Notes: generated by a model from the letters alone, not told the origin. A DNA stretch of 35,724 bases from Desulfurellales bacterium (GCA_027064405.1 JAMOPP010000161.1:1-35724); one strand, 5' to 3'. Positions 3,399 to 30,153 are shown, counted from the stretch's first letter. Numbers and translations: made by a program.

Positions 3399-3753
3399 TT
3401 GTAATAAAGCCATAAAATCGATAAAGGAAAATGCAGGCACAAATGACATTGGTATGATTCTTGTTCACAACGGAGTGGTTAGAAAAACCTCAAGAAAAGG
3501 CGACAATGAAGTTTTCGGTATGGATTTGGATTACGATGAAAACATCTTAAACAGCTTGATAGAAGACACCCTTTCATATAAAGGCGTCAAAGAGGTTAAA
3601 GTTTGGATAAATAAGGGTCAATTGGAGGTAGGCGATGACATTATGTATGTTATTGTTGCGGGAGATAGAAAAAATAACATCCTTAAACCCTTTGAAAACT
3701 TAGTATCTCAAATCAAACTACAAGTTGTCAAAGAACAAGAAAATATAAAATAA
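3385..3753 (+). CDS. MoaE-fold small protein (molybdopterin synthase catalytic subunit-like, divergent)
   Basis: ATG 3385 has AAGGAG 7 nt upstream and is preferred over the track's TTG 3364. The pattern LVHNGVVRK...GDNEVFGMDLDYDE...KGQLEVGDDIMYVIVAGDRKN...VSQIKLQVVKEQE parallels E. coli MoaE (FTGKVRN...LTLEHY...IGELWPGDEIVFVGVTSAHR...YLKTRAPFWKRE). The HR dyad reads DR here. It overlaps the KamA-like gene by 14 nt. Confidence 0.6.
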   Translation: MKTFDCNKAIKSIKENAGTNDIGMILVHNGVVRKTSRKGDNEVFGMDLDYDENILNSLIEDTLSYKGVKEVKVWINKGQLEVGDDIMYVIVAGDRKNNILKPFENLVSQIKLQVVKEQENIK

Positions 3754-18362: not shown

Positions 18363-19205
18363 TCATTCTGTTTTTAGAGAATATAGGCTCTCTGAATGTT
18401 GTTTAATAAGTTCGGCTTTCTTTTGAGTAATATCCAACATTGACATTAATGTCTTTGTATCTATAGGAATAATATCTTTAATTAGTATTATGTTATTTTT
18501 AATGAGTTTATCGGATAGACGGGCTTTAATGCCACTTAAAATTGTGACGGGATAAAGCTTTTTATCCTCTATCATTTTTTTTAAACTATATTCTTGAGGA
18601 TAATTCCATGATATTGCCTTGAAATTCATACATGAGGCATAATTTATCGCATCTATCGTCAATCTTGTATTGGTTACAAGCCACCCTTCATAATTCGGCT
18701 TTAAGTAGCGCTTTTTTAATACATTCTCCAAATCTTTAAACCTCGAATGGACATAAAGCGCAACCTTGGCGTCAGATGCTCTCTGCGCATTGGAGTGATA
18801 TTTGCATTCCACACTCACCACAAGGTTATGCTTTGTTCCAAGCACATCTATTTCATGCCTAATACACTTCCCCTTAAGCGTTAGGTTTGTTTCCGTTTTA
18901 AAGCCATACGCCTTCATTAAATCTGCAAAATACTGCTCAAAGGTATAACCCGCCGGGCCAAGTTTAAGCATAGCCTTTTTTAAAGAGTAGAGAAAAAATG
19001 ATCTACGGTTAATGTTCCTTAGAAACTTATGAGACAAAGAATATATATAATTTGTACTAACCTTGTTTTTTATGTAAGGTGCAACAAGCTTATAAACGGC
19101 TTCCGCTTCACTGTTGCTCGCTCCTGACCTTTTTAAGGAATTTTTGAGCTTTTGAGGATCAAATTCCTCCAATTGCCCATTTGCCTTTCTTATCTTAACA
19201 CTCAT
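18363..19205 (-). CDS. ATP-cone domain protein fused to a PD-(D/E)xK (Mrr-like) nuclease fold with a possible C-terminal HhH
   Basis: 280 aa. The N-terminus VKIRKANGQLEEFDPQKLKNSLKRSGAS...AEAVYKLV fits the ATP-cone pattern. The middle region HEIDVLG...VVSVECKYH supplies D...ExK. The C-terminus SGIKARLSDKLIKNNIILIKDI...ITQKKAELI is HhH-like. The start lies 3 nt after the HyfB-like stop. Confidence 0.65.
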   Translation of the reverse strand: MSVKIRKANGQLEEFDPQKLKNSLKRSGASNSEAEAVYKLVAPYIKNKVSTNYIYSLSHKFLRNINRRSFFLYSLKKAMLKLGPAGYTFEQYFADLMKAYGFKTETNLTLKGKCIRHEIDVLGTKHNLVVSVECKYHSNAQRASDAKVALYVHSRFKDLENVLKKRYLKPNYEGWLVTNTRLTIDAINYASCMNFKAISWNYPQEYSLKKMIEDKKLYPVTILSGIKARLSDKLIKNNIILIKDIIPIDTKTLMSMLDITQKKAELIKQHSESLYSLKTE

Positions 19206-19208
19206 AAT

Positions 19209-21083
19209 CTAAGCTATAAAGAAAGTTAAAATAAAAATTACAAGTATATAAAATATATAGATATAAATTTTGCCGTTCATTAAATATCTGCTTGTTACAT
19301 TGCCCATACTAATAAATGCATTGCGAAAAAAAGAATAGAAAAATTCCATTCTATCTTCAGCTACAACGCTACATACCTGATTTTTTTTAATTTCTTTCGT
19401 ATTGTATACCTTCTTTAATATGTATTTAAGTATGTACGAGTAGGCATCCGCAGTAAAATATTCTTTTTCTTTTAATTCAAGTCCGCCGTTCCACGATGTA
19501 ACCTTTTTTACTCTTTTGTTGGTCGCAAGGTATATTAAAAACGGCACTATAAACAGAATAAGCGCAACTATAGCAAAATAGGTTGGAGCCAAAACTCCGA
19601 ATACCGGCTTGCCTGAAAGTATAAGAAACGGCTTTGAAACGGATAAAGCACCTGATAACATATAGGAATAACCGCTTAATTTAATAATAAACGGAGCACC
19701 TATGCCTGTTAAAATCACTAAAATTATAAGAAAGATTTCTGAAAATTTCATAAAAAACGAAGGTGTCTTAACGGTTTTTTTATCATGGTCGTAACCCAAC
19801 GCCGTGTATCCTATAAGTTTAACCATCGAAAAACCTGTCAATCCTATGGCAAGCGCTATCAAAAGGCCGGATACCGTTGTGAAAAATTTTTCCGCATCGT
19901 TTACAAGTTTATAGGATTGAAACACAGACTCAAGAAGCATCCACTCCCCTACATACCCTGCAAGAGGGGGAAATGCACTGAAAGATAGAGACGATATCAG
20001 CACCCCGAGTGCAGGAGTTTTTCCAACACCCTTCCAGATTCCCCTAATATCATCAATAGTGTCAGCCTTGTATGCCTTTTTAGCATGCCCTATTGATAGA
20101 AACATAAGAGTTTTTGAAAATGTGTGAGCCGCAATAAGGATTATAGCTGTAACAAAAGCAAAATGAGACAGATAGTTCAAAGAACTGTAATTTAATGTAA
20201 GAGCGGAAAGCCCGAGTATAGATAATATCATACCATTATTTTCAACCGTAGAATATGCAGGAAGCGTTTTTACACCACTTGCAGCTACAGCCTGCAAAGC
20301 ACCCCAAAATGCAGACACCGCACCAAGCGTAGTGAGCGTTATCGCCCACCATTGAGGAAAAGCACTACTTGATAAAATTATTTTAGAAATTCCATATGCG
20401 CCAAGAAGTGTCATCGGAGCACTCAATATAGCACAGGTGTTTGACGGGTCTTTTGAATAAACATCCTTCATCCAAGTATGAAAAGGCGTTACATCCATTT
20501 TTATCAAAAATCCCAAAGATGCAAAAACGGTAAAAACAGCCGTATTATTCTGGAATATTATGGTTGTATGATTTGTAAAATACGTGTATGCAAACCCGGC
20601 CATTAAACTCAATGCCGACAGTTCTCCATATGCCAAAAAGCCGTATGCTTTTCCAAAAGGCACTCTTCTTTCGATTAATATCAATAAAAATGAAAAGATG
20701 GTCATAAGTTCCCAACCTGCAAGAAAAGTTATGGAATCATTGGCTACAAAAACTATGAGCATACTTAAAAATACTATATTAAAAAACGCAGATGTCGATT
20801 TTTCGTGAGTTGCACCGTGATCTATGGAAAATAAGGATATAGCTGCCCACGATAATGATGCTACTGCCAAAAAAACAGCGCTGCTCTTATCAAGAAAAGC
20901 ATTAAGAACAATACTGTCCGTTAAATGTATGTTGTAGATAACAAGTTTTTGGCTAAATGTCGCACAAGCCGTCGCAAATGATGCAAGAGAACCAAAAAAA
21001 GCTAAAATATATCCCCATCGATTTGAAAAAGATGCAACAATGCCAAGTATAAACAGTGCTACCGCAATTATAAAAAATGTCAT
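19209..21083 (-). CDS. HyfB/NuoL/MrpA-type antiporter-like membrane subunit
   Basis: 624 aa polytopic protein with LAGWELMT (TM5 Glu) and LIKMDVTPFHTWMKD (Lys + HxW motif). It overlaps the small-subunit gene by 4 nt (ATGA). Confidence 0.8.
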   Translation of the reverse strand: MTFFIIAVALFILGIVASFSNRWGYILAFFGSLASFATACATFSQKLVIYNIHLTDSIVLNAFLDKSSAVFLAVASLSWAAISLFSIDHGATHEKSTSAFFNIVFLSMLIVFVANDSITFLAGWELMTIFSFLLILIERRVPFGKAYGFLAYGELSALSLMAGFAYTYFTNHTTIIFQNNTAVFTVFASLGFLIKMDVTPFHTWMKDVYSKDPSNTCAILSAPMTLLGAYGISKIILSSSAFPQWWAITLTTLGAVSAFWGALQAVAASGVKTLPAYSTVENNGMILSILGLSALTLNYSSLNYLSHFAFVTAIILIAAHTFSKTLMFLSIGHAKKAYKADTIDDIRGIWKGVGKTPALGVLISSLSFSAFPPLAGYVGEWMLLESVFQSYKLVNDAEKFFTTVSGLLIALAIGLTGFSMVKLIGYTALGYDHDKKTVKTPSFFMKFSEIFLIILVILTGIGAPFIIKLSGYSYMLSGALSVSKPFLILSGKPVFGVLAPTYFAIVALILFIVPFLIYLATNKRVKKVTSWNGGLELKEKEYFTADAYSYILKYILKKVYNTKEIKKNQVCSVVAEDRMEFFYSFFRNAFISMGNVTSRYLMNGKIYIYIFYILVIFILTFFIA

Positions 21084-21544
21084 TTTGCACCTCGATTTGC
21101 TACTTTTAATAAAACTGCCAAAATTTCATCCGGCGTGGGCAGAAAGTCAATTTTGCCAACTATATGTTTTTTATCTATAAAATCCGAATAATCATCGTAT
21201 TCTTTGCATCCGTTAATTATAAGAATACCAAATTGATTCGGCATCTGATTTATTGTTTCCTTCAAAGGTTCAACCATTTTACGATTCACGGGACCTGCTA
21301 TGATAAGCAAATCTGCATGTCGCGGAACTGCTGTAAAAAATATACCGAATCTGTGAGTGTTGTATTGAGGAGACTGCAAAGCCTTGAATGTAAAATTGAG
21401 GGCATTTGAATTACCAGTATCTATAACAAAAATATGAAGAGATTTTGAAAAAACCCCGCCCAAAGGTTTAATATCAATATCAGTGTCGTATCGTTTTTTC
21501 TCTGTTAAGTTTTGTTTTAAACCGTGAAATGGCCAAAATTTCAT
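21080..21544 (-). CDS. NuoB/HycG/EchC-like small subunit homolog lacking the [4Fe-4S] cysteine set
   Basis: 154 aa. The core RFGIFFTAVPRHADLLIIAGPVNRKM matches the family signature (ERFGI..ASPRHADVLLVTGPVT). The Cys motifs are replaced: GSCNGCE becomes TGNSNALN, GCPP becomes FLPTP, and only NGCK retains one Cys. Confidence 0.75.
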   Translation of the reverse strand: MKFWPFHGLKQNLTEKKRYDTDIDIKPLGGVFSKSLHIFVIDTGNSNALNFTFKALQSPQYNTHRFGIFFTAVPRHADLLIIAGPVNRKMVEPLKETINQMPNQFGILIINGCKEYDDYSDFIDKKHIVGKIDFLPTPDEILAVLLKVANRGAK

Positions 21545-21559
21545 AAAAATTTCTCCAAA

Positions 21560-22783
21560 TTATCTTGCAGCATCTGCAAAATTAACACCAAAAGATTCAA
21601 CGGTAAACACAAAATCCGTAAAAATCTGATTTACAAGAGAATCAGCAATTGCTTTAAATCCCGTAACGGACGGTGTTACCACATAAATATTTTTTATTTT
21701 CGAATTCTCAATTTCTACATAGTATGCCATAGTGCCACTCGGAGACTCTACAGCTTCCACGCAGCTTCCGTCAGATATATCCAATCTTTGAGCTTTTTCC
21801 TTTGAAGTATCAAGATTTTCCACATTCTTTTCTATGAATTTAATTGAATCAAGAATTTCATATGCCCTCACTTCCATTCTTGAAAGAGAGTCCCCCTCTT
21901 TTTTTGAAATAACTTCAAAATTCTCATAATCATTTGTCCTTAAATCCTCTGCTATACCGCTTGCACGGCAAGACGGACCGCTCAAACCTATTTCAACCGC
22001 TTTTTGAGCTGTTATTATGCCGGTATTGTGAAGTCTGTCTAAAAAGTTTCCGCTTTGAAGTGAGCCGCTGTATAAATCCTCGAACCTCGATTTTATATTT
22101 TGAAGTCTTAACAACAAATCCTTCTTTTTTTCATAAGATAAAGATATATCAAGTTTTCCTATTTGATTTATATTTGTTAGAAATCTATCTCCGGTAAAGG
22201 ATTCATTTGCCCTAAGCGATTCCTCGAAAAGATAATAAAGATGTGATGATAGAACCTTTTGCGCTGCACCATTTGCAAGCTGAGCTATAACATAAATATG
22301 GTTGTAGATTCTTTCAAGTTCAAGCAGTATCCCTCTTAGTATGCGTGTTTCGTCGTCTATTTTAATATTAGATATAGACTCAACCGCCTTTGAAAATGCT
22401 ATTGAGTGAGAAATGGCAAAATTTCCGCATATTGATTCTGCAAGTGCAACCGACTCCAACGGATTTTTACCTATCATCAGCTTTTCTATATTTCTTTTTT
22501 TGTATGTTGTATCTATATTTACAGAGAGAATTTTTTCTCCATATGTGTATATATTGTAAATTCCGGCTTCGCCTACGCCGCCTGTAACGGGTCCGTATCT
22601 AAAATTAAAAACACCATCTCCTTCAACCGCTTCTCCCCCTATTAAGCTATCCCTATTAATAAGGGTTTTATAGTTCGGAAAATCGCTACCTTTACAGGAG
22701 GCATCTATTTTTACATTCATCGATTTATCCTGCACTATACACAGTTCACTGTTGTTATTTTGTACTACTCCAAGTAACTTCAT
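21560..22783 (-). CDS. group 4 [NiFe]-hydrogenase large subunit / NuoD-like protein lacking Ni-Fe ligands
   Basis: 407 aa. Family pattern: FRYGPVTGG, TYKKRNIEK, LAESICGNFAISH (canonical RxCGxCxxxH), LLELERIYNH. The C-terminus ESFGVNFADAAR replaces the canonical DPCxxCxxR. Confidence 0.8.
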   Translation of the reverse strand: MKLLGVVQNNNSELCIVQDKSMNVKIDASCKGSDFPNYKTLINRDSLIGGEAVEGDGVFNFRYGPVTGGVGEAGIYNIYTYGEKILSVNIDTTYKKRNIEKLMIGKNPLESVALAESICGNFAISHSIAFSKAVESISNIKIDDETRILRGILLELERIYNHIYVIAQLANGAAQKVLSSHLYYLFEESLRANESFTGDRFLTNINQIGKLDISLSYEKKKDLLLRLQNIKSRFEDLYSGSLQSGNFLDRLHNTGIITAQKAVEIGLSGPSCRASGIAEDLRTNDYENFEVISKKEGDSLSRMEVRAYEILDSIKFIEKNVENLDTSKEKAQRLDISDGSCVEAVESPSGTMAYYVEIENSKIKNIYVVTPSVTGFKAIADSLVNQIFTDFVFTVESFGVNFADAAR

Positions 22784-24153
22784 TATCTTATCACTCCTGC
22801 AAGAAGCAGATTAAATTTAGGTATCAAAAAAATAGTTAAAAATGCCAAGATGATATGCATAGCGGGTATTAAATTTACAAGCATATGCCTTTCGTTACTC
22901 TCCGCCTCTTCCTTTGAAAAAATCATCTTTCCCGTGTAATAGTTAACCGATATAAAAGCCAATGAAGCAAAGAGTGCAAACACTACAACACTTATTATTC
23001 CGTAAACCTCATAAAGTTTTGACATAATCAATATCTCACCTGCAAAAGTCGCAAATGGCGGTGCTCCTGTTGCTGCCAATGATGCAAAAAATAGGCTGTA
23101 TGCAGTAAAAGGCATATGATTGAACAGGTTCTTTACTTCATCGATACGAGTTTTTTTTGTTCTTATTAAAATATTGCCACTTAAATAAAAAACAGCCGAT
23201 TTTGCAAATGCATGGGCAACTATAACAATCACCGAACCTAAAATTGCGTATCTCCCAAGAGATATACCTATTAAAGCTATTCCCATATTTTCCATAGAAG
23301 AGTAGGCATAAAGCCTCTTGTAATATTTCTGAACAGTGCTTAGGGTTGCCGCTGTTACAAGTGTTAGAAAACCGAGAATAAACATAAACTCTTTGACAAT
23401 GTGTGAAGAATACACCTCTGTCGTTCTAAATATACCAAAAAGAGCAACCGGAAGCAGAACGCCTGAAAATATTGCGCTAATCGGCGACGGAGCTTTTCCG
23501 TGAACATCAGGAAGCCAACTGTGCATAGGGAATATTCCGGCTTTTGTGCCGTAACCTACAACTGCCATCAATATTCCTAAGGTTATTATTTTATCATTTA
23601 CACCATGCATAGATGCAAGTTTCACAAAATCCAGAGTTCCTCCCGCTCCGAATATAAAAACATTTCCAAAAAGAGAAACAACAAGACCGACCGAAACTAT
23701 TATTATATATCTCCAGGTAGCCTCTATCGATTCTTTGGAATTTTCTATGGCAACCAAAAGTGCACTTGTAATTGTTGTGGCTTCTATACCGACCCATATC
23801 AGACCGAGATTTTTAACCATAACACTAAAAAGCATACTGAAAGTGAAAAGGTTTAGCCATAAAAAATAAAAATTTTGTTTTAAAAGAGGGTTATGTATAT
23901 GTTTTATGTAACTTATCGAATAGATGGTTGTTCCCATATATATGATAGATATGGTAAAAAGCATAATTTTAGACGCCCCGTCTATGTAGATAAAATAGTG
24001 TGAAAAATTTTGACTAAAGGCAATTGCAATGGAAGATACAAGCGTTAGAATAGAAAACAGAACGGATGAATATTGAGACAGCTTGTCTATTTTAATTAGG
24101 GATACAGTCGCTGCCACAAGCGTAAAAATTAAAGGCAAAGTGTAAAATATCAT
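22783..24153 (-). CDS. HyfF/HyfD/NuoN/MrpD-type antiporter-like membrane subunit
   Basis: 456 aa polytopic protein with IWVGIEATTITSALLV and GTKAGIFPMHSWLPDVHGKAPSPISA motifs. It shares 1-nt overlaps with both neighbours. Confidence 0.8.
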   Translation of the reverse strand: MIFYTLPLIFTLVAATVSLIKIDKLSQYSSVLFSILTLVSSIAIAFSQNFSHYFIYIDGASKIMLFTISIIYMGTTIYSISYIKHIHNPLLKQNFYFLWLNLFTFSMLFSVMVKNLGLIWVGIEATTITSALLVAIENSKESIEATWRYIIIVSVGLVVSLFGNVFIFGAGGTLDFVKLASMHGVNDKIITLGILMAVVGYGTKAGIFPMHSWLPDVHGKAPSPISAIFSGVLLPVALFGIFRTTEVYSSHIVKEFMFILGFLTLVTAATLSTVQKYYKRLYAYSSMENMGIALIGISLGRYAILGSVIVIVAHAFAKSAVFYLSGNILIRTKKTRIDEVKNLFNHMPFTAYSLFFASLAATGAPPFATFAGEILIMSKLYEVYGIISVVVFALFASLAFISVNYYTGKMIFSKEEAESNERHMLVNLIPAMHIILAFLTIFLIPKFNLLLAGVIR

Positions 24154-24154
24154 A

Positions 24155-24793
24155 TCAACCCTTCAGCTCTTCACTGTTTTCTAAAGAATCCGGAACAAAA
24201 TTTTCTCTCAATCTGCCTATCAAACTCGATATCATCACAACCCCTATCAAATCCAAAACAACACCGGCTTCAATAGTTAGTGAAAGACCGGGATAAAAAT
24301 ATGTGCCAAAAATAAGAATAGAATTTTCCATAATCATATAACCCACAAGCTGCGTAAATGCATTCCGTTTTGAAATCATTAAAAATACGCCCTGAAACAT
24401 CAATGAAAGCAGTACCGCTCCGCTCCTTATCTGCAAATCATCATATAAGCTTACATAGTACACAAAATATCCTACAACTGCACTCAAGATTGAGAATATT
24501 ATTGACGATGCAATTCCAAATGTAGGCTGCGTTTCCCTTGCTCTCCATTTTTCTTTCTTCAGCTTCTTAATCATAAAATAGGGTATAAAAATAACCCTCA
24601 CAAGAAGCGTTAAAAGAGCAACATATATCACCACAGGCTCTTTCGTATTCATTCCTATATACAATAAAAAGGAAGCCATAAAAAAAGAACTAATTGAAAA
24701 AGTAATTATTGTTTTTTTAATATAAACCTGCCACTGCATAAAAATAACAAGAAGAACCTCAATCGACCCGAAAAGTAAAAGCATTTTATCCAT
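24155..24793 (-). CDS. HyfE-like membrane subunit (NuoK-related)
   Basis: 212 aa. The C-terminal half ISKRNAFTQLVGYMIMENSILIFG...EAGVVLDLIGVVMI...ELKG parallels my recollection of E. coli HyfE (VSQRNILRQIFGYCLMENGSHLV...LTALKG). Confidence 0.75.
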   Translation of the reverse strand: MDKMLLLFGSIEVLLVIFMQWQVYIKKTIITFSISSFFMASFLLYIGMNTKEPVVIYVALLTLLVRVIFIPYFMIKKLKKEKWRARETQPTFGIASSIIFSILSAVVGYFVYYVSLYDDLQIRSGAVLLSLMFQGVFLMISKRNAFTQLVGYMIMENSILIFGTYFYPGLSLTIEAGVVLDLIGVVMISSLIGRLRENFVPDSLENSEELKG

Positions 24794-25746
24794 TAGAATA
24801 TCCCGTTTGCCGCATATATTGCAAGCATACCTATTAGAATAACAGAAAATGTAACAGCTATATAATCAAAAATTTTATACAATCGATACTTTGAAACAGT
24901 TTCGTTTATAAAAGCAAAAATAATAACAAGGGTAAACATTTTTAAAAGATGAATACCGGAATAGATAAATACAGCACTTAAAGATGTATATTTCATAGGA
25001 ACCCAAAACGGACATGCATAAACATTTAAAAATACACTCATAAGCAGAAACTGTTTTATATATCCGCCCCATTTATATACGGCGAGGTCACTTCCTGAAA
25101 ACTCCATCTCCATAGATTGATCTATCATACCAAATTCTCCGTGAGTTTTGGCTTCAATGGGCAGTTTTCCCGTTTCTACTATTAAGTTCATAAAAAATGT
25201 AGCCGCTATAAATATATGAACAACCGAGAAATACCAGGAGCTGGAGGTTTGGAATACATTGTTAATAACATAAGGATTGTTTGTATTTGAAATAACACCG
25301 CACAAAATAAAGAGCAAAACCGTAATAGGCTCTGAAAGTGCACCTATACTGGATGCCCTTGCAGTTCCAAGATGTGAATAGTTGTTTCTACTATCCAGCG
25401 CAACGATTTTCTTTATTATACCCGCAGCGCCAAAAATGAGACCTCCTCCAATAAAATCTGCCGTAGGACCAAAAGCCAAAGGAAATGCGGTAATAATGGG
25501 CAAGATGATAATAATCAACATATAAAGTGCAAAATTAATATATGGACCTATTCTAAATACGCCTGATGCAACCTTTGGGACTACATTTTCCTTTGTGAAG
25601 AGTTTATGTAGGTCATAGTAAGGCTGAAAAATAGTGGGACCCGCTTTGGATTCCATCTTTTCTTCCACTGTCGAGAGTATGCCTACTATTAACGGTGCAA
25701 AAAGAATTACATATACAAGTTGGATGAAACTTAAAGCGACTAACAT
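24793..25746 (-). CDS. HyfC/HycD/NuoH-like membrane subunit
   Basis: 317 aa. KMESKAGPTIFQPYYDLHKLFTKE matches the NuoH/HycD N-terminal loop signature (Q.R.GP...QP..D..KL..KE). AGGAG SD lies 4 nt upstream. Confidence 0.8.
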   Translation of the reverse strand: MLVALSFIQLVYVILFAPLIVGILSTVEEKMESKAGPTIFQPYYDLHKLFTKENVVPKVASGVFRIGPYINFALYMLIIIILPIITAFPLAFGPTADFIGGGLIFGAAGIIKKIVALDSRNNYSHLGTARASSIGALSEPITVLLFILCGVISNTNNPYVINNVFQTSSSWYFSVVHIFIAATFFMNLIVETGKLPIEAKTHGEFGMIDQSMEMEFSGSDLAVYKWGGYIKQFLLMSVFLNVYACPFWVPMKYTSLSAVFIYSGIHLLKMFTLVIIFAFINETVSKYRLYKIFDYIAVTFSVILIGMLAIYAANGIF

Positions 25747-25748
25747 CA

Positions 25749-25775
25749 GACTCCTCTGTCTTTGAGTTAGGAGTC
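25749..25775 (-). promoter_or_regulatory. leader hairpin that pairs the SD of the first operon gene
   Basis: Minus strand: GACTCCT-aactcaaagacag-AGGAGTC-tg-ATG(25746). The 3' arm is the SD itself. Confidence 0.3.
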
Positions 25776-25910
25776 ATTGGCTTAAAAAATAAGCGGTTAA
25801 AGGTGAACCCCTCCACCTTATAGTTTCACGGCTTTTAACAGATTTTCATTTATATGTCAAGTTAAAAAACAAATCTAAAATATATACAAAATCTCCTCAC
25901 ACTATTATAC

Positions 25911-27743
25911 TCAGTCCTGTTTTTCACTCATCACAGTCTTATTTCTACCTGAATTTTTTGCTTTGTAAAGAGCTAAATCCGCAAGTTTTATGGCTTTGTC
26001 AAAATTGTTATCATTACCCGAAAATTCGCTTACACCTATACTTATGGTGACATTGATAGATGTGCCGTTTATTTTTATGCTACTTGATTCAACTCTTTTC
26101 CTTATATTCTCGGCAATCTCAAAAGAATTCTTTTTATCCGCATTTATAAGGAAAATTAAAAACTCCTCTCCGCCGAAACGAACAACAACATCAGACTCTC
26201 TAACGCTTTTTGTCATAATTTTTGCTACATTTTTCAATACTTCATCCCCCACATCATGCCCGTATGTGTCGTTAACTTTCTTGAAAAAGTCAATATCGCA
26301 CATAAGTATTCCCAATTTATTACCACTTCTTCTTGCGTTTTTTATTATCAAATCCTCGGTTCTCGATACAAATCTTCTATTGTATAGACCCGTTAATTCG
26401 TCATACAACGCAATCTTCTTTAAATCGTTTTCATACCTTCTAACCCGCTTTATTAAACTGTTAAATTTGTCTATTATGTAGCTTAACTCTTTTATTGCAC
26501 ATTTTTGGCTATCTATCGATCTCGAATGTCTTAAAGATTGATCAAACTCATTGAACAATTTATCGGTATAGCTTCTCGTAACTTTTTTAAGAATAAACAA
26601 AAACAACAAAGCAACAACCATCATAAGCAAAATCAAAAATACGATTGTATGTTTTATTGCATTCAAATGCGCTATAGCTACAGAAACCCGAGTATTAATA
26701 ATGGGCTTTAAATCGTTGATATATATCCCTGTTGCAAAAATCCAGTGCCAGGGTTTATACAACCTAAAACAACTTATCTTTTTCTCCACTTTATCTGAAT
26801 TCGGCACTTTATAGTAGTATTCAACAAATGAATAACCTTTATTTCTTATATCCTTTAAAAAAATTTTTCTAAACTTAAAACCCCTTACATCTGTATATTC
26901 ATCCGACATACATTTATTCAACAAGTCAGGCCTGTTTACATTAACCAACATTTTTCCAAAGCAGTTGCCACCATTTATGTTTAGAAGTTTGATAACAAAT
27001 ATATAACCGTGATTATCCTTACCGTATCTATACAAAGAAAGTTGATTTAACCATTTTCGCTTCAACCTTCCCTCTAAATACTCAGTATCAATTCTTGTAA
27101 CAAGAACCCAGTCAAACGGTTTGTAATATTTTACAAAGGTTATACCCTTTTGCTTAATTGATGCGGGATTTAAATCGTACCAATTGGACACGAAATACTG
27201 ATTAATAAAATCCTCTTTTTTTGTTTTTGCTGTTTTTATAATGTCTCTTATTATAGAATTTCCCTTAAAATCTTTCAAATTAATAAAGTTTTTACCTTCA
27301 GCATTTATATCGTAAGGATTTACTACACAATTACCTTTTGCATCAAAAATATAATAAGAGATTGACGGATCTGAAAATGTTTTATCTTCAAGGTATCTTC
27401 TTAAAAGTAGCTTCATTTTCTTTTTTGTCGCATATTCACCATACATCATACGCATATGCTCTAAATGTTTATATATTACCCGATTCATTATAACCTCTTT
27501 TTTCATATCAGCTACATCTTGTTTTCTTTCACTGTCAATGGTTTTTATTATATTTTCTATCATTGATTTGGCATACTGTTTCGAGTTGTCCATATATACT
27601 TTCTTGATTGTCTCAATGTCATCTTTGGCAACCTTTTCACTTGTATAATACCAATAGCCTGCAAAAACAGCAGAAACTATTATGGATATAATCAAAAAGA
27701 CAGATATTATAAAGCTTATAGCAGATATATTTTTAATCTTCAC
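25911..27743 (-). CDS. membrane sensor diguanylate cyclase: two tandem Cache modules, TM, GGDEF
   Basis: Cache hallmarks (KPFDWVLVTRIDTEYL; KPWHWIFATGIYINDL). GGDEF domain with DELTGLYNRRF, DIDFFKKVNDTYGHDVGDEVL and RFGGEEF, plus an RESD I-site. GTG 27743 (GAGGGTG SD 5 nt upstream) is preferred over the track's ATG 27779. Confidence 0.85.
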   Translation of the reverse strand: MKIKNISAISFIISVFLIISIIVSAVFAGYWYYTSEKVAKDDIETIKKVYMDNSKQYAKSMIENIIKTIDSERKQDVADMKKEVIMNRVIYKHLEHMRMMYGEYATKKKMKLLLRRYLEDKTFSDPSISYYIFDAKGNCVVNPYDINAEGKNFINLKDFKGNSIIRDIIKTAKTKKEDFINQYFVSNWYDLNPASIKQKGITFVKYYKPFDWVLVTRIDTEYLEGRLKRKWLNQLSLYRYGKDNHGYIFVIKLLNINGGNCFGKMLVNVNRPDLLNKCMSDEYTDVRGFKFRKIFLKDIRNKGYSFVEYYYKVPNSDKVEKKISCFRLYKPWHWIFATGIYINDLKPIINTRVSVAIAHLNAIKHTIVFLILLMMVVALLFLFILKKVTRSYTDKLFNEFDQSLRHSRSIDSQKCAIKELSYIIDKFNSLIKRVRRYENDLKKIALYDELTGLYNRRFVSRTEDLIIKNARRSGNKLGILMCDIDFFKKVNDTYGHDVGDEVLKNVAKIMTKSVRESDVVVRFGGEEFLIFLINADKKNSFEIAENIRKRVESSSIKINGTSINVTISIGVSEFSGNDNNFDKAIKLADLALYKAKNSGRNKTVMSEKQD

Positions 27744-30153
27744 TATTGCACCCTCTTTTTGTATTAACCTTATAAACAAGCTCTTCTACTGTTTCCGCAT
27801 CATCAGGATAAATAGCATAATTTATATCAAAATCAACATAATCCACAACACTCTTACCATCCTTATCTTTCATTGTATAGAATTCACTATTAGAAAAAGC
27901 ATTCTTAAATTCATCTTTTAGCTTTTTCTTAGACCTTTTCATCATTTCAGTTTCTTTATTGATATTTCGCTCTTTTTTGAGTTCGTGTGCAATAAAAAAT
28001 ATATCAGCATAAGCCCTTGACACAAGTTGTTTTTTACATATATCCGGCTCCTCTTTGGATAAATTAAGAAGTACTTGAGCCATACTTATAATTACAGCAT
28101 CCCCTGCCTGCTCAGAAAACATATAGTTAATTCTTGAAATCTGTTTTATATTGATTCTAATAAAAACAAATCTTCTTTTTTCATCTATTAATTTCTGAAT
28201 TTCTTTTAAAAATACAGACCTTAATTCCAATCCTGTCATATAATCAACCTTAAAAATCTCATTTCTCATAATATCTACATCATAAGACATAAACCTCACT
28301 TCCGTGAAATCTTCTTGCGTATAAGACTCAATAAGCACAGATTCTACCTTCTGCAAAATTTCTTTATCAACACTCTCCTGTTTCAATATTTCCATAGCCT
28401 TACTTGGTGAAAATGCATGCCTGTATGGTCTTGTTGTTGTCAAGGCATCAAAGATATCCGCAATGGCAAGTATTTTTGCACCAATTGTAATCTCGCCACA
28501 TTTTAAACCGTCAGGATATCCGCTACCGTCACACTTTTCGTGATGTCCCCTTACGCAGTTTGCAAAAGATTTAAAATGTTCTAACTCTTTTAAAATTTCA
28601 TAAGAGAAAACAGGATGATATTTCATTATTCTATACTCATTCTCTGATAATTTTCCGGGCTTTAAGAGTATATTGTCAGGTATTCCTATTTTTCCTATGT
28701 CATGCAAAAGTCCGGCTTTGTAGATATACTCCTGCTTTTTTGTATCTAAACCCAATGTTTTAGCTATTTTTTTGGCATAGTAGGCTACCCTTTGAGAATG
28801 ACCTTTTGTGTATACATCTCTTGCTTCCATAATGTTGACAAAAGATTGTATAAATTCATCTTCGTAAATATTGTCTATTTCCGCCTTTTTATCCAACATT
28901 TTATTTGCGTTTAATGCCATTATTCTCAGCTCTTTTAATTCAATTTCTCTCAAATTAATCTTTTTATCCTTTAAGGCAGCATCTTGAAAAAACGAAGTAA
29001 AAACATTAAAGTCATTCTTTAATTTTTTATACAAACCATAATATAAAAATATAGAAAACAATATTAGTAAAAATGATATAGAAATCACCATTATAACACG
29101 ATAAAACATTTTTCTATACAGATTTTGTTTTATCAATGTTGTCATATTTTCTATCTCATCGGTATATACGCCTGCACCCACTATCCAATTCCACTCTTTT
29201 ATTCCATACACAAACGAAATTTTAGGATATTCTTTCTTTGAATTATCTATCTTAGGCCAAGAATAGTATATAAATCCTCCATCCTTCTTTAACGCTGCAA
29301 TCTTTTCTTTTTCGAATACGGTTTTTGCCTTTTCTCCAAAAGCAGACCATAGCTTTTTCCCATTTTCAATAACCCTACCGTTAGAAGATAAAATATATCC
29401 GTCAAAAGTATTAACAAATACATACCCGCCGTTTTCAAACCTTATTTTGCTTATTTCACCAATAATATATTTTTGTGTTTCATATCTTAAATCATCAACA
29501 TATACACCTGTACCTATCAACCAATTAAACGGCTTAAACTCCTTTACATAGGCTATTTTTAAAAACTTTTTACCCTCCTGATGCGGTTTAGACCAATGGT
29601 ATGAATAAACACCCTCCTGCTGTTTTTTTACTATTTCAATCATATCCTTTACGACATACTTCCCATCTACATCCCGCACAGCAAGCATATTTTTGCCCTC
29701 AAATTCAGGCTTGTCAGGAAAAAGCTCTTCGATTCCATCAAGATTTGTTGCAAAATAGTATCCATTTCCCCTTAAAAAACGCATAGGACGCAAAGCATCT
29801 TTGACCATCTTTTTAATTTCAGGCAGGCTTTTTTTGTCTTTATTTTTCCGATAGATATTTTCCGCTATAGCGCATGCTTCATATACCCTCTGCCTAACCC
29901 TTTCCGCAGCCTGTTTTCTGCTTGTCTTAATTTGGTATCCAATCATATCAACGACAGACATAACCTCTTGCTTTACAAGCTGTTTTTGGCTATCTGTATA
30001 TTCAGCTCTCATCATTGACGCTAAATAATTAAGATTTTTGTGCACAACAAATATCTGTAACGCAAGCATTAATACAGATGCAAAAATCAATGCAACCGTA
30101 GCCATTTTCATTACGCTATTTACGGATTTTACTTTTTTGCTATTTTGCCTCAA
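27733..30153 (-). CDS. membrane sensor HD-GYP phosphodiesterase: two tandem Cache modules, TM, HD-GYP, degenerate C-terminal GGDEF-like domain
   Basis: Cache hallmarks (KPFNWLIGTGVYVDDL; WNWIVGAGVYTDEI). HD-GYP motifs are complete: GHSQRVA, LLHDIGKIGIPD, HHEKCDGSGYPDGL, IADIFDAL. The C-terminus is GGDEF-fold-like, but DxD reads INIK and GGDEF reads YADIF. Confidence 0.85.
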   Translation of the reverse strand: MRQNSKKVKSVNSVMKMATVALIFASVLMLALQIFVVHKNLNYLASMMRAEYTDSQKQLVKQEVMSVVDMIGYQIKTSRKQAAERVRQRVYEACAIAENIYRKNKDKKSLPEIKKMVKDALRPMRFLRGNGYYFATNLDGIEELFPDKPEFEGKNMLAVRDVDGKYVVKDMIEIVKKQQEGVYSYHWSKPHQEGKKFLKIAYVKEFKPFNWLIGTGVYVDDLRYETQKYIIGEISKIRFENGGYVFVNTFDGYILSSNGRVIENGKKLWSAFGEKAKTVFEKEKIAALKKDGGFIYYSWPKIDNSKKEYPKISFVYGIKEWNWIVGAGVYTDEIENMTTLIKQNLYRKMFYRVIMVISISFLLILFSIFLYYGLYKKLKNDFNVFTSFFQDAALKDKKINLREIELKELRIMALNANKMLDKKAEIDNIYEDEFIQSFVNIMEARDVYTKGHSQRVAYYAKKIAKTLGLDTKKQEYIYKAGLLHDIGKIGIPDNILLKPGKLSENEYRIMKYHPVFSYEILKELEHFKSFANCVRGHHEKCDGSGYPDGLKCGEITIGAKILAIADIFDALTTTRPYRHAFSPSKAMEILKQESVDKEILQKVESVLIESYTQEDFTEVRFMSYDVDIMRNEIFKVDYMTGLELRSVFLKEIQKLIDEKRRFVFIRINIKQISRINYMFSEQAGDAVIISMAQVLLNLSKEEPDICKKQLVSRAYADIFFIAHELKKERNINKETEMMKRSKKKLKDEFKNAFSNSEFYTMKDKDGKSVVDYVDFDINYAIYPDDAETVEELVYKVNTKRGCNSED

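Follow-up and report, generated by a model that had tools for sequence, protein, structure and literature searches.

A riboswitch-led operon for a putatively cofactor-free, hydrogenase-related membrane complex as part of the fluoride regulon in a Desulfurellales bacterium

The stretch of Desulfurellales bacterium DNA analyzed here (GCA_027064405.1, JAMOPP010000161.1:1-35724; 35,724 nucleotides, hereafter the window) carries on its minus strand six tightly packed genes that are predicted to encode a six-subunit membrane complex of the Ehr (energy-converting-hydrogenase-related) type. The fifth gene, at 21080..21544 (-), encodes EhrS, a NuoB/MbhJ/HycG-like subunit of 154 aa that was characterized by sequence searches, alignments, AlphaFold2 (AF2) modeling and Foldseek comparison. 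Two features appear to be new: an Ehr-type complex has become fully cofactor-free, and it is a member of the fluoride regulon, which gives a different meaning to the riboswitch-linked class known as 'formate hydrogen lyase' (FHL). Ehr complexes as such, and the association of the crcB motif with 'FHL' genes, are already known (PMC2864571, PMC11139923). The fluoride-response 'FHL' is probably no hydrogenase and handles ions instead, and the reading that we prefer, with a probability of roughly 0.55, is that the cofactor-free complex is induced by fluoride and works as a redox-independent ion translocator.

The starting point was an earlier note on EhrS, made from the sequence alone, which recognized a NuoB/HycG-like protein without the ligands of the proximal [4Fe-4S] cluster. 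All the strings that it quoted are present: the family core RFGIFFTAVPRHADLLIIAGPVNRKM (residues 65-90), DTGNSNALNF (42-51), INGCKEY (110-116) and FLPTP (134-138). The four ligand positions (CxxC ... C ... CP) read S-L-C-L in EhrS, one Cys in place of four. In the alignment to PDB chains, S46 and L49 (codons 21409-21407 and 21400-21398) fall on both Cys of the CxxC motif, and the first motif region has no Cys, as the earlier note had stated; its reading of the GCPP motif as FLPTP also holds, since L135 (21142-21140) aligns with the GCPP Cys both in the alignment to the Cys-bearing relative P0041 and in the family-wide alignment. The protein has exactly one Cys, again as claimed, but the note overlooked what this residue is: C113 (21208-21206) has the third ligand of the cluster as its counterpart in the alignment (igaCP in MbhJ, GSCA in complex I). 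The lone Cys is thus a relic of ligand 3 and not a random residue, one of four ligands being kept. With this addition, the motif correspondence originally drawn is confirmed by the alignments; the Ehr-type identity of the operon and its fluoride riboswitch had likewise escaped notice.

The homology itself is divergent but well founded. In phmmer searches against PDB chains, EhrS matched MbhJ (6cfw_J) with an E value of 1e-11, NDUFS7/PSST with ~1e-8 and HycG with 2e-7, whereas the scores against Pfam Oxidored_q6 (PF01058; 19.6 bits, gathering score 27) and the NCBIfam NuoB subfamily (E 2e-11, 43.5 bits, cut-off 116) remained below the thresholds. Because of these scores, the Hippea orthologue is labeled 'hypothetical protein' in RefSeq; none of the 40 EhrS orthologues has an entry in the precomputed Pfam field. 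The AF2 model, obtained with 30 orthologues as input, reached a predicted local distance difference test score (pLDDT) of 83.3 and a predicted template-modeling score of 0.78, contains the alternating strand-helix pattern of the family, and finds its best Foldseek matches in MbhJ (6cfw_J), HycG (7z0s_G) and NDUFS7 chains (template-modeling scores of 0.6-0.64, probability 1.00). EhrS is thus predicted to keep the flavodoxin-like alpha/beta fold of NuoB. Its N-terminus also retains the NuoI/HycF-type motif M.WW...G(L/I)...T that is common to NuoI-NuoB fusions, while the ferredoxin core is deleted. This agrees with the description of Ehr small subunits as frequent NuoB-NuoI fusions (supplementary note 4 of PMC6349859).

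A central question is whether the cluster-less EhrS is maintained by selection or is the decaying, functionless remnant of a hydrogenase small subunit. Decay would fit the disappearance of the classic motifs, the scores under the Pfam and NCBIfam cut-offs and the uninformative RefSeq label of the Hippea orthologue. The comparative data leave this explanation very improbable. In a word-indexed search, 40 EhrS relatives with identities of 38-58% were found in Bacteroidota, Ignavibacteriota, Thermotogota, Spirochaetota and Hippea, which together cover at least five phyla. Invariant motifs run through this set, and all of its members lack the CxxC motif. Among the aligned orthologues, it is missing in 30/30 and the third Cys is kept in 2/30; the ligand loss is therefore neither chance nor sequencing error. 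The orthologues contain zero to two Cys. Those of Mesoaciditogaceae still have Cys at ligand positions 3 and 4, where the window protein has position 3 only, as if an ancestral cluster site had been eroded step by step. Size and separation of the clade are apparent from an exhaustive profile search of 1.84 billion representatives, in which only eight clusters matched at E <= 1e-30 (249-158 bits) and the next match, after a clear gap, scored 98 bits. No member of the clade was found on plasmids in a plasmid search (best match 31% identity).

Selection on the cluster-less form is seen at several levels. The loop that stands in place of CxxC is itself conserved among the 30 orthologues (D42 and N47 invariant, L49 in 28/30, F51 in 24/30), and the ligand-3 and ligand-4 regions are variable and often acidic. 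In pairs whose dS is unsaturated, the ratio of nonsynonymous to synonymous substitution rates (dN/dS; Nei-Gojobori NG86) lies at 0.05-0.19 for EhrS and at 0.04-0.14 for its five partners in the operon, which indicates purifying selection without signs of pseudogenization. The reading frame is intact, is preceded by a GGAGA Shine-Dalgarno sequence and overlaps the next gene by four nucleotides (ATGA, the stop of EhrS and the start of EhrA), consistent with translational coupling, and the fold is confidently predicted. When one genome per species was scanned, 17 orthologous loci emerged, which belong to Bacteroidota (Lentimicrobiaceae, Paludibacter, Ginsengibacter), Ignavibacterium, Mesoaciditogaceae and Spirochaetales. 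Hippea sp. KM1 and one further genome were added to this set; the gene order (NuoH-, HyfE-, HyfF-, NuoD-, NuoB- and HyfB-like) is identical in 17/17 and also in Hippea sp. KM1. Dn/dS, synteny and conservation together essentially exclude a pseudogene, and the survey of orthologues that the earlier note had proposed thus points to the cluster-less EhrS as a selected state. One specialized idea, a new polar anion site at the old CxxC, lost weight on three grounds: the ancestral origin of N47, the hydrophobic nature of L49, F51 and L135, and the variability around ligands 3 and 4.

The large subunit has lost its cofactor as well. EhrL (21560..22783 (-), 407 aa; Pfam Complex1_49kDa, E 5e-28) is NuoD/HycE-like, with MbhL as its best sequence match. 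Its AF2 model (pLDDT 91.8) is uncertain only at residues 66-73 of the beta1-beta2 loop, and its best Foldseek match is HycE (template-modeling score 0.80), followed by NDUFS2/NuoD. The L1 motif of the nickel-iron (NiFe) site reads ESIC119GNF122AISH126, in which only the first Cys, one of the four NiFe ligands, is retained, and the C-terminus reads SFGVNFADAAR in place of DPCxxCxxR. The beta1-beta2 loop is FRYGPVTGGVGE, with GPVTGG instead of GPxHP and thus without the complex-I His, and Gly120 occupies the position of the quinone-binding Tyr87 of Thermus thermophilus. The balance for the clade is therefore one of four NiFe Cys, one of four proximal [4Fe-4S] Cys in the window and none in most orthologues, and a deleted two-cluster ferredoxin domain, which in the nearest relatives is fused to NuoB; the quinone-site His and Tyr were never present. 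Every known redox-cofactor site of the ancestral hydrogenase/complex I module has thus been removed in this clade. The earlier note had argued that no wire leads from a donor to the large-subunit site, and this conclusion stands: three of four EhrS ligands are replaced by non-ligating residues, and EhrL offers no NiFe site, quinone His or Tyr at which electrons could arrive.

Around the old active site, Cys119 (codon 22429-22427) is nearly invariant, as are Glu72, His126 and Asp404. His126 is the L1 His, Asp404 takes the place of the fourth NiFe Cys, and Glu72 is the proton-transfer Glu of group 4 hydrogenases. This constellation would be accounted for if ion movement were coupled to a non-redox reaction in the pocket, for example hydration or binding at a mononuclear metal site formed by Cys119, His126 and Asp404, for which vectorial carbonic anhydrases on antiporter-like subunits provide an analogue. 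The very strong conservation of the FRYGPVT segment in the beta1-beta2 loop, the only flexible segment of the model, can be added in its favor. We consider such a reaction quite improbable: the site is putative and its residues would have to lie close together in space, the gene neighborhoods give no hint of a substrate, and the control by fluoride would be left unexplained.

The membrane arm of the proposed translocator is complete. EhrB (24793..25746 (-), 317 aa), encoded by the first gene, is NuoH/HycD-like (Pfam NADHdh, E 7e-27; in PDB, HycD 7z0s_D with E 1.5e-26 and MbhM with E 2e-15) and conserves the acidic residues E191, E198, E204 and E215 in the region of the loop between transmembrane helices (TM) 5 and 6. 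EhrC (24155..24793 (-), 212 aa) has no Pfam match and is assigned as HyfE-like by NCBIfam (E 2.5e-11, under the cut-off) and by synteny in all orthologous loci; its conserved carboxylates are E87, E156 and E175. Two antiporter-type subunits follow in kind, the HyfF/NuoN-like EhrD (22783..24153 (-), 456 aa; Pfam Proton_antipo_M, E 4e-57, and alignments to MbsH, MbhH and HycC) and the HyfB/NuoL-like EhrA (19209..21083 (-), 624 aa; Pfam Proton_antipo_M, E 1e-26, and HycC in PDB, E 2e-26). NCBIfam also assigns membrane subunits of the operon to the HyfB, HyfE and HyfF types. Across 17 orthologues, EhrD conserves E124 (TM5), K204 (TM7), H314/K318 (TM11) and E373 (TM12); the corresponding residues in EhrA are E125 (TM5), K195 (TM7), H320/K324 (TM11) and E380 (TM12), and these positions are invariant in both subunits. 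The central Lys of TM8 is replaced throughout the clade, by Pro or Ala in EhrD (P235 in the window, codon 23451-23449) and by Leu in EhrA (L226, codon 20408-20406). In other Ehr groups, described below, the HyfB-like subunit has Asn at this position (groups II-IV) or still Lys (canonical Ehr). Fold, subunit set, gene order and membrane-arm charges are kept under strong purifying selection.

The link to fluoride came from the gene neighborhoods. CrcB, DUF190, pairs of MutS-domain-V genes and DUF6062 recur in the flanks of the orthologous loci, a set that matches the fluoride regulon and that led to a scan with RNA families. The scan identified a fluoride riboswitch aptamer (crcB motif, RF01734) at 25761..25826 (-), with 40.3 bits against a gathering score of 34 in Rfam cmscan (E ~1e-7). 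The aptamer lies on the coding strand and ends 14 nt before the ATG (25746) of EhrB. A possible expression platform occupies 25749..25775 (-): the 3' strand of the aptamer pseudoknot, GACUCCU (25775-25769), can pair without a mismatch with AGGAGUC (25755-25749), the segment that includes the Shine-Dalgarno sequence of EhrB. Both the minimum-free-energy and the centroid folds, predicted for the ligand-free RNA, form this 7-bp sequestering helix, which fits translational control of the fluoride-ON type, the mode to be expected from the known riboswitch class. By eye, a promoter-like element can be discerned at 25832..25860 (-), composed of TTGACA (25860-25855), a 17-nt spacer and the extended -10 TGnTAAAAG (25840-25832); it would put the start of transcription at approximately the first base of the riboswitch. 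A strict promoter and terminator scan returned no minus-strand promoter and no terminator, and the -10 hexamer ending in G explains why the element seen by eye was missed.

The riboswitch is not peculiar to the window: at least 12 orthologous loci carry it immediately ahead of the operon. At the matching position, RF01734 reached the gathering score in L003, L004, L006, L007, L012, L015 and the Hippea loci L081 and L083, and it was found below that score, with E values of 3.5e-5 to 0.0085, in L001, L002, L014 and L019. L009 and L011 have recognizable variant aptamers, and L013 has the 3' half only. Arrangements with more than one aptamer also occur. In the Spirochaetales locus L007, tandem aptamers (3404-3464 and 3684-3744; 59.5 and 62.9 bits) stand ahead of the operon. 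Riboswitch pairs are present in the Bacteroidota loci L012 (2506-2576 and 3453-3529), L014 (2349-2419 and 3296-3372) and L019 (3028-3099 (-) and 3474-3540), where a crcB-DUF190 unit with its own riboswitch adjoins the riboswitch-led Ehr operon, and double-zinc-ribbon, DUF6062, MFS and paired MutS-domain-V genes recur near these three operons.

Such tight and specific control suggests another possibility, namely, that the complex itself moves fluoride or hydrogen fluoride (HF), driven by an H+ or Na+ gradient, either through a cavity at the EhrL/EhrS/EhrB junction (the old NiFe/quinone/N2 region) or through the antiporter-like channels. Exporters are the commonest genes under control of this riboswitch (PMC11139923). 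The polar and aromatic loop that replaces CxxC is conserved (D42, G44, N45, S46, N47, L49, N50, F51), as is the EhrL pocket of C119, E72, H126 and D404, and the non-canonical TM8 positions suggest an altered ion path. However, the separately controlled crcB that adjoins the operon at several loci indicates that the operon adds to a fluoride channel and does not replace it. N47 is the ancestral N of CNGC, L49, F51 and L135 seem to fill the old cluster cavity with hydrophobic side chains, and the variability of the ligand-3 and ligand-4 regions also speaks against an anion path. No member of the complex I/Mrp superfamily is known to move anions. We therefore regard a fluoride or HF transporter as unlikely.

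One additional line of evidence for a redox-independent translocator is provided by the wider family. The other 63 loci of the genome scan were divided by the C-terminus of the large subunit into groups II-V, with the window clade as group I. They are of the Ehr type, with large subunits lacking L1 and L2, except for L035, which keeps L1, and L069, which keeps both. In a neighbor-joining tree of 76 large subunits, computed without the curated HydDB reference set, the window clade was monophyletic in 40/40 bootstraps, groups I-IV each in 39-40/40 and group V in 29/40; the best tree places groups I-IV together with a weak support of 19/40. The groups differ in both riboswitch and cluster ligands. 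In group I, zero to two Cys occupy ligand positions, and the riboswitch is found at the gathering score in 9/16 loci, below it in four more and as a variant aptamer in two. Group II (Alphaproteobacteria and Salinisphaera) has a NuoI-NuoB fusion with all Cys kept and a riboswitch in 7/8 loci by Rfam and in the eighth by nhmmer. Group III (Eremiobacterota, Chromatiaceae, Acidobacteriaceae and others; riboswitch at the gathering score in 4/7) includes four loci with CCCC and the subclade L051, L071 and L078 with NCEC, DLEC and DCDC, respectively, and a Cys-free NuoI remnant. In group IV (Actinomycetota; riboswitch at the gathering score in 4/5), no NuoB Cys remains. Canonical Ehr loci, ~38 in number and including Nitrospira, Acidithiobacillus and an ammonia-oxidizing archaeon, form group V; all are CCCC, and none of the 38 has the riboswitch, as judged by nhmmer at E < 0.01, Rfam not having been applied to them.

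Beyond group I, aptamers were surveyed with nhmmer and Rfam; a MAFFT alignment of the aptamers was poor in P3. Riboswitches at the gathering score stand 5' of L018, L021, L023, L025, L026, L028, L033, L036, L037, L041, L051, L053, L064, L071 and L078. Fe-S ligands disappeared independently in no fewer than three lineages, namely, group I, group IV and the subclade of L051, L071 and L078. All of these losses fall within riboswitch-linked groups, and this repetition argues that the resistance function is not electron transfer. The number of cluster sites in the homologous riboswitch-linked complexes varies between three, one and none, which supports a shared function that would need no electron wire. 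The order of the losses may be glimpsed in a near relative, the metagenomic P0051 (L085 1-3322), which may be an intermediate form: it has the same L-S-A order, four small-subunit Cys, no ferredoxin domain and a NiFe-less large subunit, and thus supports a sequence in which NiFe was lost first and Fe-S later. A further Ehr-like operon, on plasmid pRZP3 of Rhodococcus sp. ZPP (L087 2783-10071), is arranged S-A-B-C-D-L, a circular permutation of the window order, with an IS110 transposase and integrases adjacent. As it keeps four small-subunit Cys and lacks a fluoride riboswitch, the Cys-less Actinomycetota group is not equated with the mycobacterial Rv0082-87 type.

Could the complex nevertheless be an oxidoreductase or energy-converting enzyme whose partner is encoded elsewhere and which uses a non-standard site, such as a thiol at EhrL Cys119 or a cofactor not bound by Cys? 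The invariance or near-invariance of Cys119, Glu72 and His126 would agree with this explanation, as would the full Fe-S ligand sets of the riboswitch-linked groups II and III and the proposals of formate dehydrogenase (FDH)-Ehr complexes in other phyla (PMC6349859). We nonetheless judge it unlikely, to about the same degree as a fluoride transporter. In EhrS, 3/4 ligand positions are Ser or Leu and no ferredoxin domain is left, and the repeated ligand losses in fluoride-linked groups are hard to square with an essential electron path. The operon contains no NuoI/HycF-like, NuoC-like, FdhF, NuoEFG or hyp gene. The earlier note had connected the missing cluster with the absence of a ferredoxin-like subunit gene, and such a gene is indeed encoded neither in the window operon nor in any of the 17 syntenic operons. 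HycF/HycB-type ferredoxin subunits and a formate dehydrogenase partner are missing from the operon, from the 35.7-kb window (most open reading frames (ORFs) of at least 100 aa were scanned with Pfam) and from the related neighborhoods; in the flanks of the 17 neighborhoods, no formate dehydrogenase, NuoE/F/G or ferredoxin gene is conserved, and a conserved redox partner nearby was accordingly rejected.

The redox-independent translocator that we prefer would operate as follows. In the absence of fluoride, the Shine-Dalgarno sequence of EhrB would be sequestered; when cytoplasmic fluoride rises, the aptamer pseudoknot would form and the operon would be translated. The complex might then act most plausibly as a cation/proton exchanger of the Mrp or antiporter-module kind, with EhrS and EhrL seated on the NuoH-like subunit as a cap or gate that carries no cofactor. 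Exchange would help to restore cytoplasmic pH and the membrane potential, which would be dissipated by HF influx and electrogenic F- export. Influx and export of this kind are reported to load the cell with protons (PMC11139923).

Several points weigh against this interpretation. The window aptamer departs from the consensus, as its score reflects, and three Lentimicrobiaceae loci have degenerate copies only. In groups II and III, up to three [4Fe-4S] sites remain, and the ancestral fluoride function could have been redox-driven, with the window clade doing something different. Because the TM8 Lys of the Lys/Glu relay is replaced, the membrane arm may not act as a standard proton channel. The conserved residues of the EhrL pocket (C119, E72, H126 and D404) hint at a retained chemical or binding role that a purely structural cap would leave unexplained. 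Exchange of the Mrp type normally imports H+ and would not relieve acidification. The translocator function, finally, is one that we infer from sequence.

The genes around the operon offer some further observations. An ORF of 280 aa at 18363-19205 (-) begins 3 nt past the EhrA stop and has ATP-cone, Mrr_cat (restriction-endonuclease-like) and AF1548-like C-terminal domains; it may be co-transcribed with the Ehr operon, and it is not conserved beside the operon at other loci. Directly upstream of the riboswitch lie two dCache-domain cyclic di-GMP (c-di-GMP) proteins at 25911-27779 (-) and 27733-30153 (-), with an overlap of 47 nt between the listed ORFs; GGDEF is found in one protein, and an HD-GYP-type HD_5 domain with a weak GGDEF in the other. 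A PAS-GAF-GGDEF-EAL protein stands at the corresponding upstream position in Hippea sp. KM1 (L081 3147-5672). In the same genome, a molybdenum cofactor/tungsten riboswitch (L081 12367-12486, 87 bits) is located after the Ehr operon and ahead of two genes for periplasmic binding proteins, and hypF/C/D/E genes, probably unrelated to the operon, lie 3-8 kb downstream. Among most ORFs of the window of at least 100 aa, Pfam further identified Sdh/Frd, fumarase, Mdh, NfeD/Band 7 and c-di-GMP signaling proteins; GroES and GroEL are also encoded, as recognized from the translations.

What would these results imply? We put forward, as a tentative suggestion only, that a whole complex-I/hydrogenase-type assembly was stripped of its redox cofactors and re-used as a fluoride-stress device, working either by electron-free conformational coupling or as a new F-/HF transporter. 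In the first case, it would be the first natural complex-I-like machine with conformational coupling in the absence of electron transfer, the empty Q-module serving as a gate or ion entry; in the second, it would be a new kind of fluoride/HF transporter built on the old NiFe/N2 pocket. In either case, what is called 'formate hydrogen lyase' in the fluoride regulon would represent a hitherto unrecognized family of resistance proteins. The clade can also be viewed as a natural experiment, in which the membrane arm and the NuoB/NuoD/NuoH junction have long been conserved without cluster, NiFe or quinone site. If the complex moves ions, it could be used to ask which coupling parts work without redox chemistry, a long-standing question that is hard to isolate in complex I; the coupling elements conserved here are the beta1-beta2 loop, the NuoH TM5-6 loop and the E-channel carboxylates. 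There is also a consequence for annotation, given that the small subunit is sub-threshold and 'hypothetical' and the large subunit carries the label 'nickel-dependent hydrogenase'.

Comparison with known systems places the complex closest to Ehr. According to the citing passages in PMC6349859, PMC3569383 and PMC4378227, Ehr complexes were described by Coppi 2005 and Marreiros et al. 2013, and their function is stated to be unknown (PMC10284858, PMC12342949, PMC4378227). The window complex shares with them the six kinds of subunits, a large subunit without the RxCGxCxxxH and DPCxxC NiFe motifs, and the lack of maturation genes in the cluster. However, canonical loci (Nitrospira, gamma- and betaproteobacteria, ammonia-oxidizing archaea) keep four Cys and have no riboswitch, whereas the window clade is devoid of the Fe-S ligands and of the NuoI-like ferredoxin and NuoC-like parts, and its operon is under riboswitch control. 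Loss of the small-subunit cluster is not mentioned in the Ehr literature surveyed, which did not include the two founding papers; nor does that literature, with the founding papers and the 2012 riboswitch paper outside it, connect Ehr with fluoride, and earlier reports of either point may exist.

Among better-characterized enzymes, the E. coli formate hydrogenlyase (Hyc, 7z0s) and Hyf supply the best sequence or structure matches for four subunits (HycD, HycC, HycE and HycG), and this proximity explains the 'formate hydrogen lyase' label in databases and in the riboswitch literature. The window complex, in contrast, has no NiFe site, [4Fe-4S] clusters, HycF, HycB or FdhF, and no HycI or hyp gene in the operon; as predicted from these absences, it cannot be a hydrogenlyase, being able neither to oxidize formate nor to make H2. 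In Pyrococcus MBH and MBS (6cfw, 6u8y), MbhJ is the best match of EhrS in sequence and fold and MbhL that of EhrL in sequence, and MBS illustrates that such a module can lose its NiFe chemistry yet stay an ion-translocating enzyme; three [4Fe-4S] clusters and ferredoxin input are present there and not in the window complex. The Q-module of complex I (NuoB/NDUFS7 and NuoD/NDUFS2) resembles EhrS and EhrL in the fold of both subunits, in the conserved PRHAD/RFG core and in the replacement of the fourth NiFe Cys by an acidic residue, which NuoD shares, but the window complex lacks the N2 cluster, the quinone-ligating His and Tyr, the N-module and NuoA/J/C/I. Mrp antiporters (6z16, 7qru, 7d3u) are useful as a working analogy only: they are redox-independent and have two antiporter-like subunits (TM5 Glu, TM7 Lys, TM12 Glu/Lys) and small NuoK-like subunits, but they contain MrpB/C/E/F/G where the window complex has its NuoH-, NuoD- and NuoB-like subunits, which Mrp lacks, and the window clade has other residues in place of the TM8 Lys.

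The last comparison is with the fluoride regulon itself, which comprises CrcB/Fluc, CLC-F, Na+/H+ antiporters, enolase, pyrophosphatase, MutS-like proteins and 'FHL'. In 2010, mutS, K+/Cl- transporter and 'formate hydrogen lyase' genes were described as being preceded by the crcB motif (PMC2864571), and Na+/H+ antiporters rank second after exporters among the genes preceded by fluoride riboswitches (PMC11139923). The window operon resembles this regulon in having RF01734 directly upstream, and related loci do so in the adjoining crcB, DUF190 and MutS-domain-V genes, some with their own riboswitches. The riboswitch association of 'FHL' has been read as a shift to fermentative metabolism, and the literature treats these genes as a real formate hydrogenlyase (PMC11139923), a view that the sequences presented here contradict.

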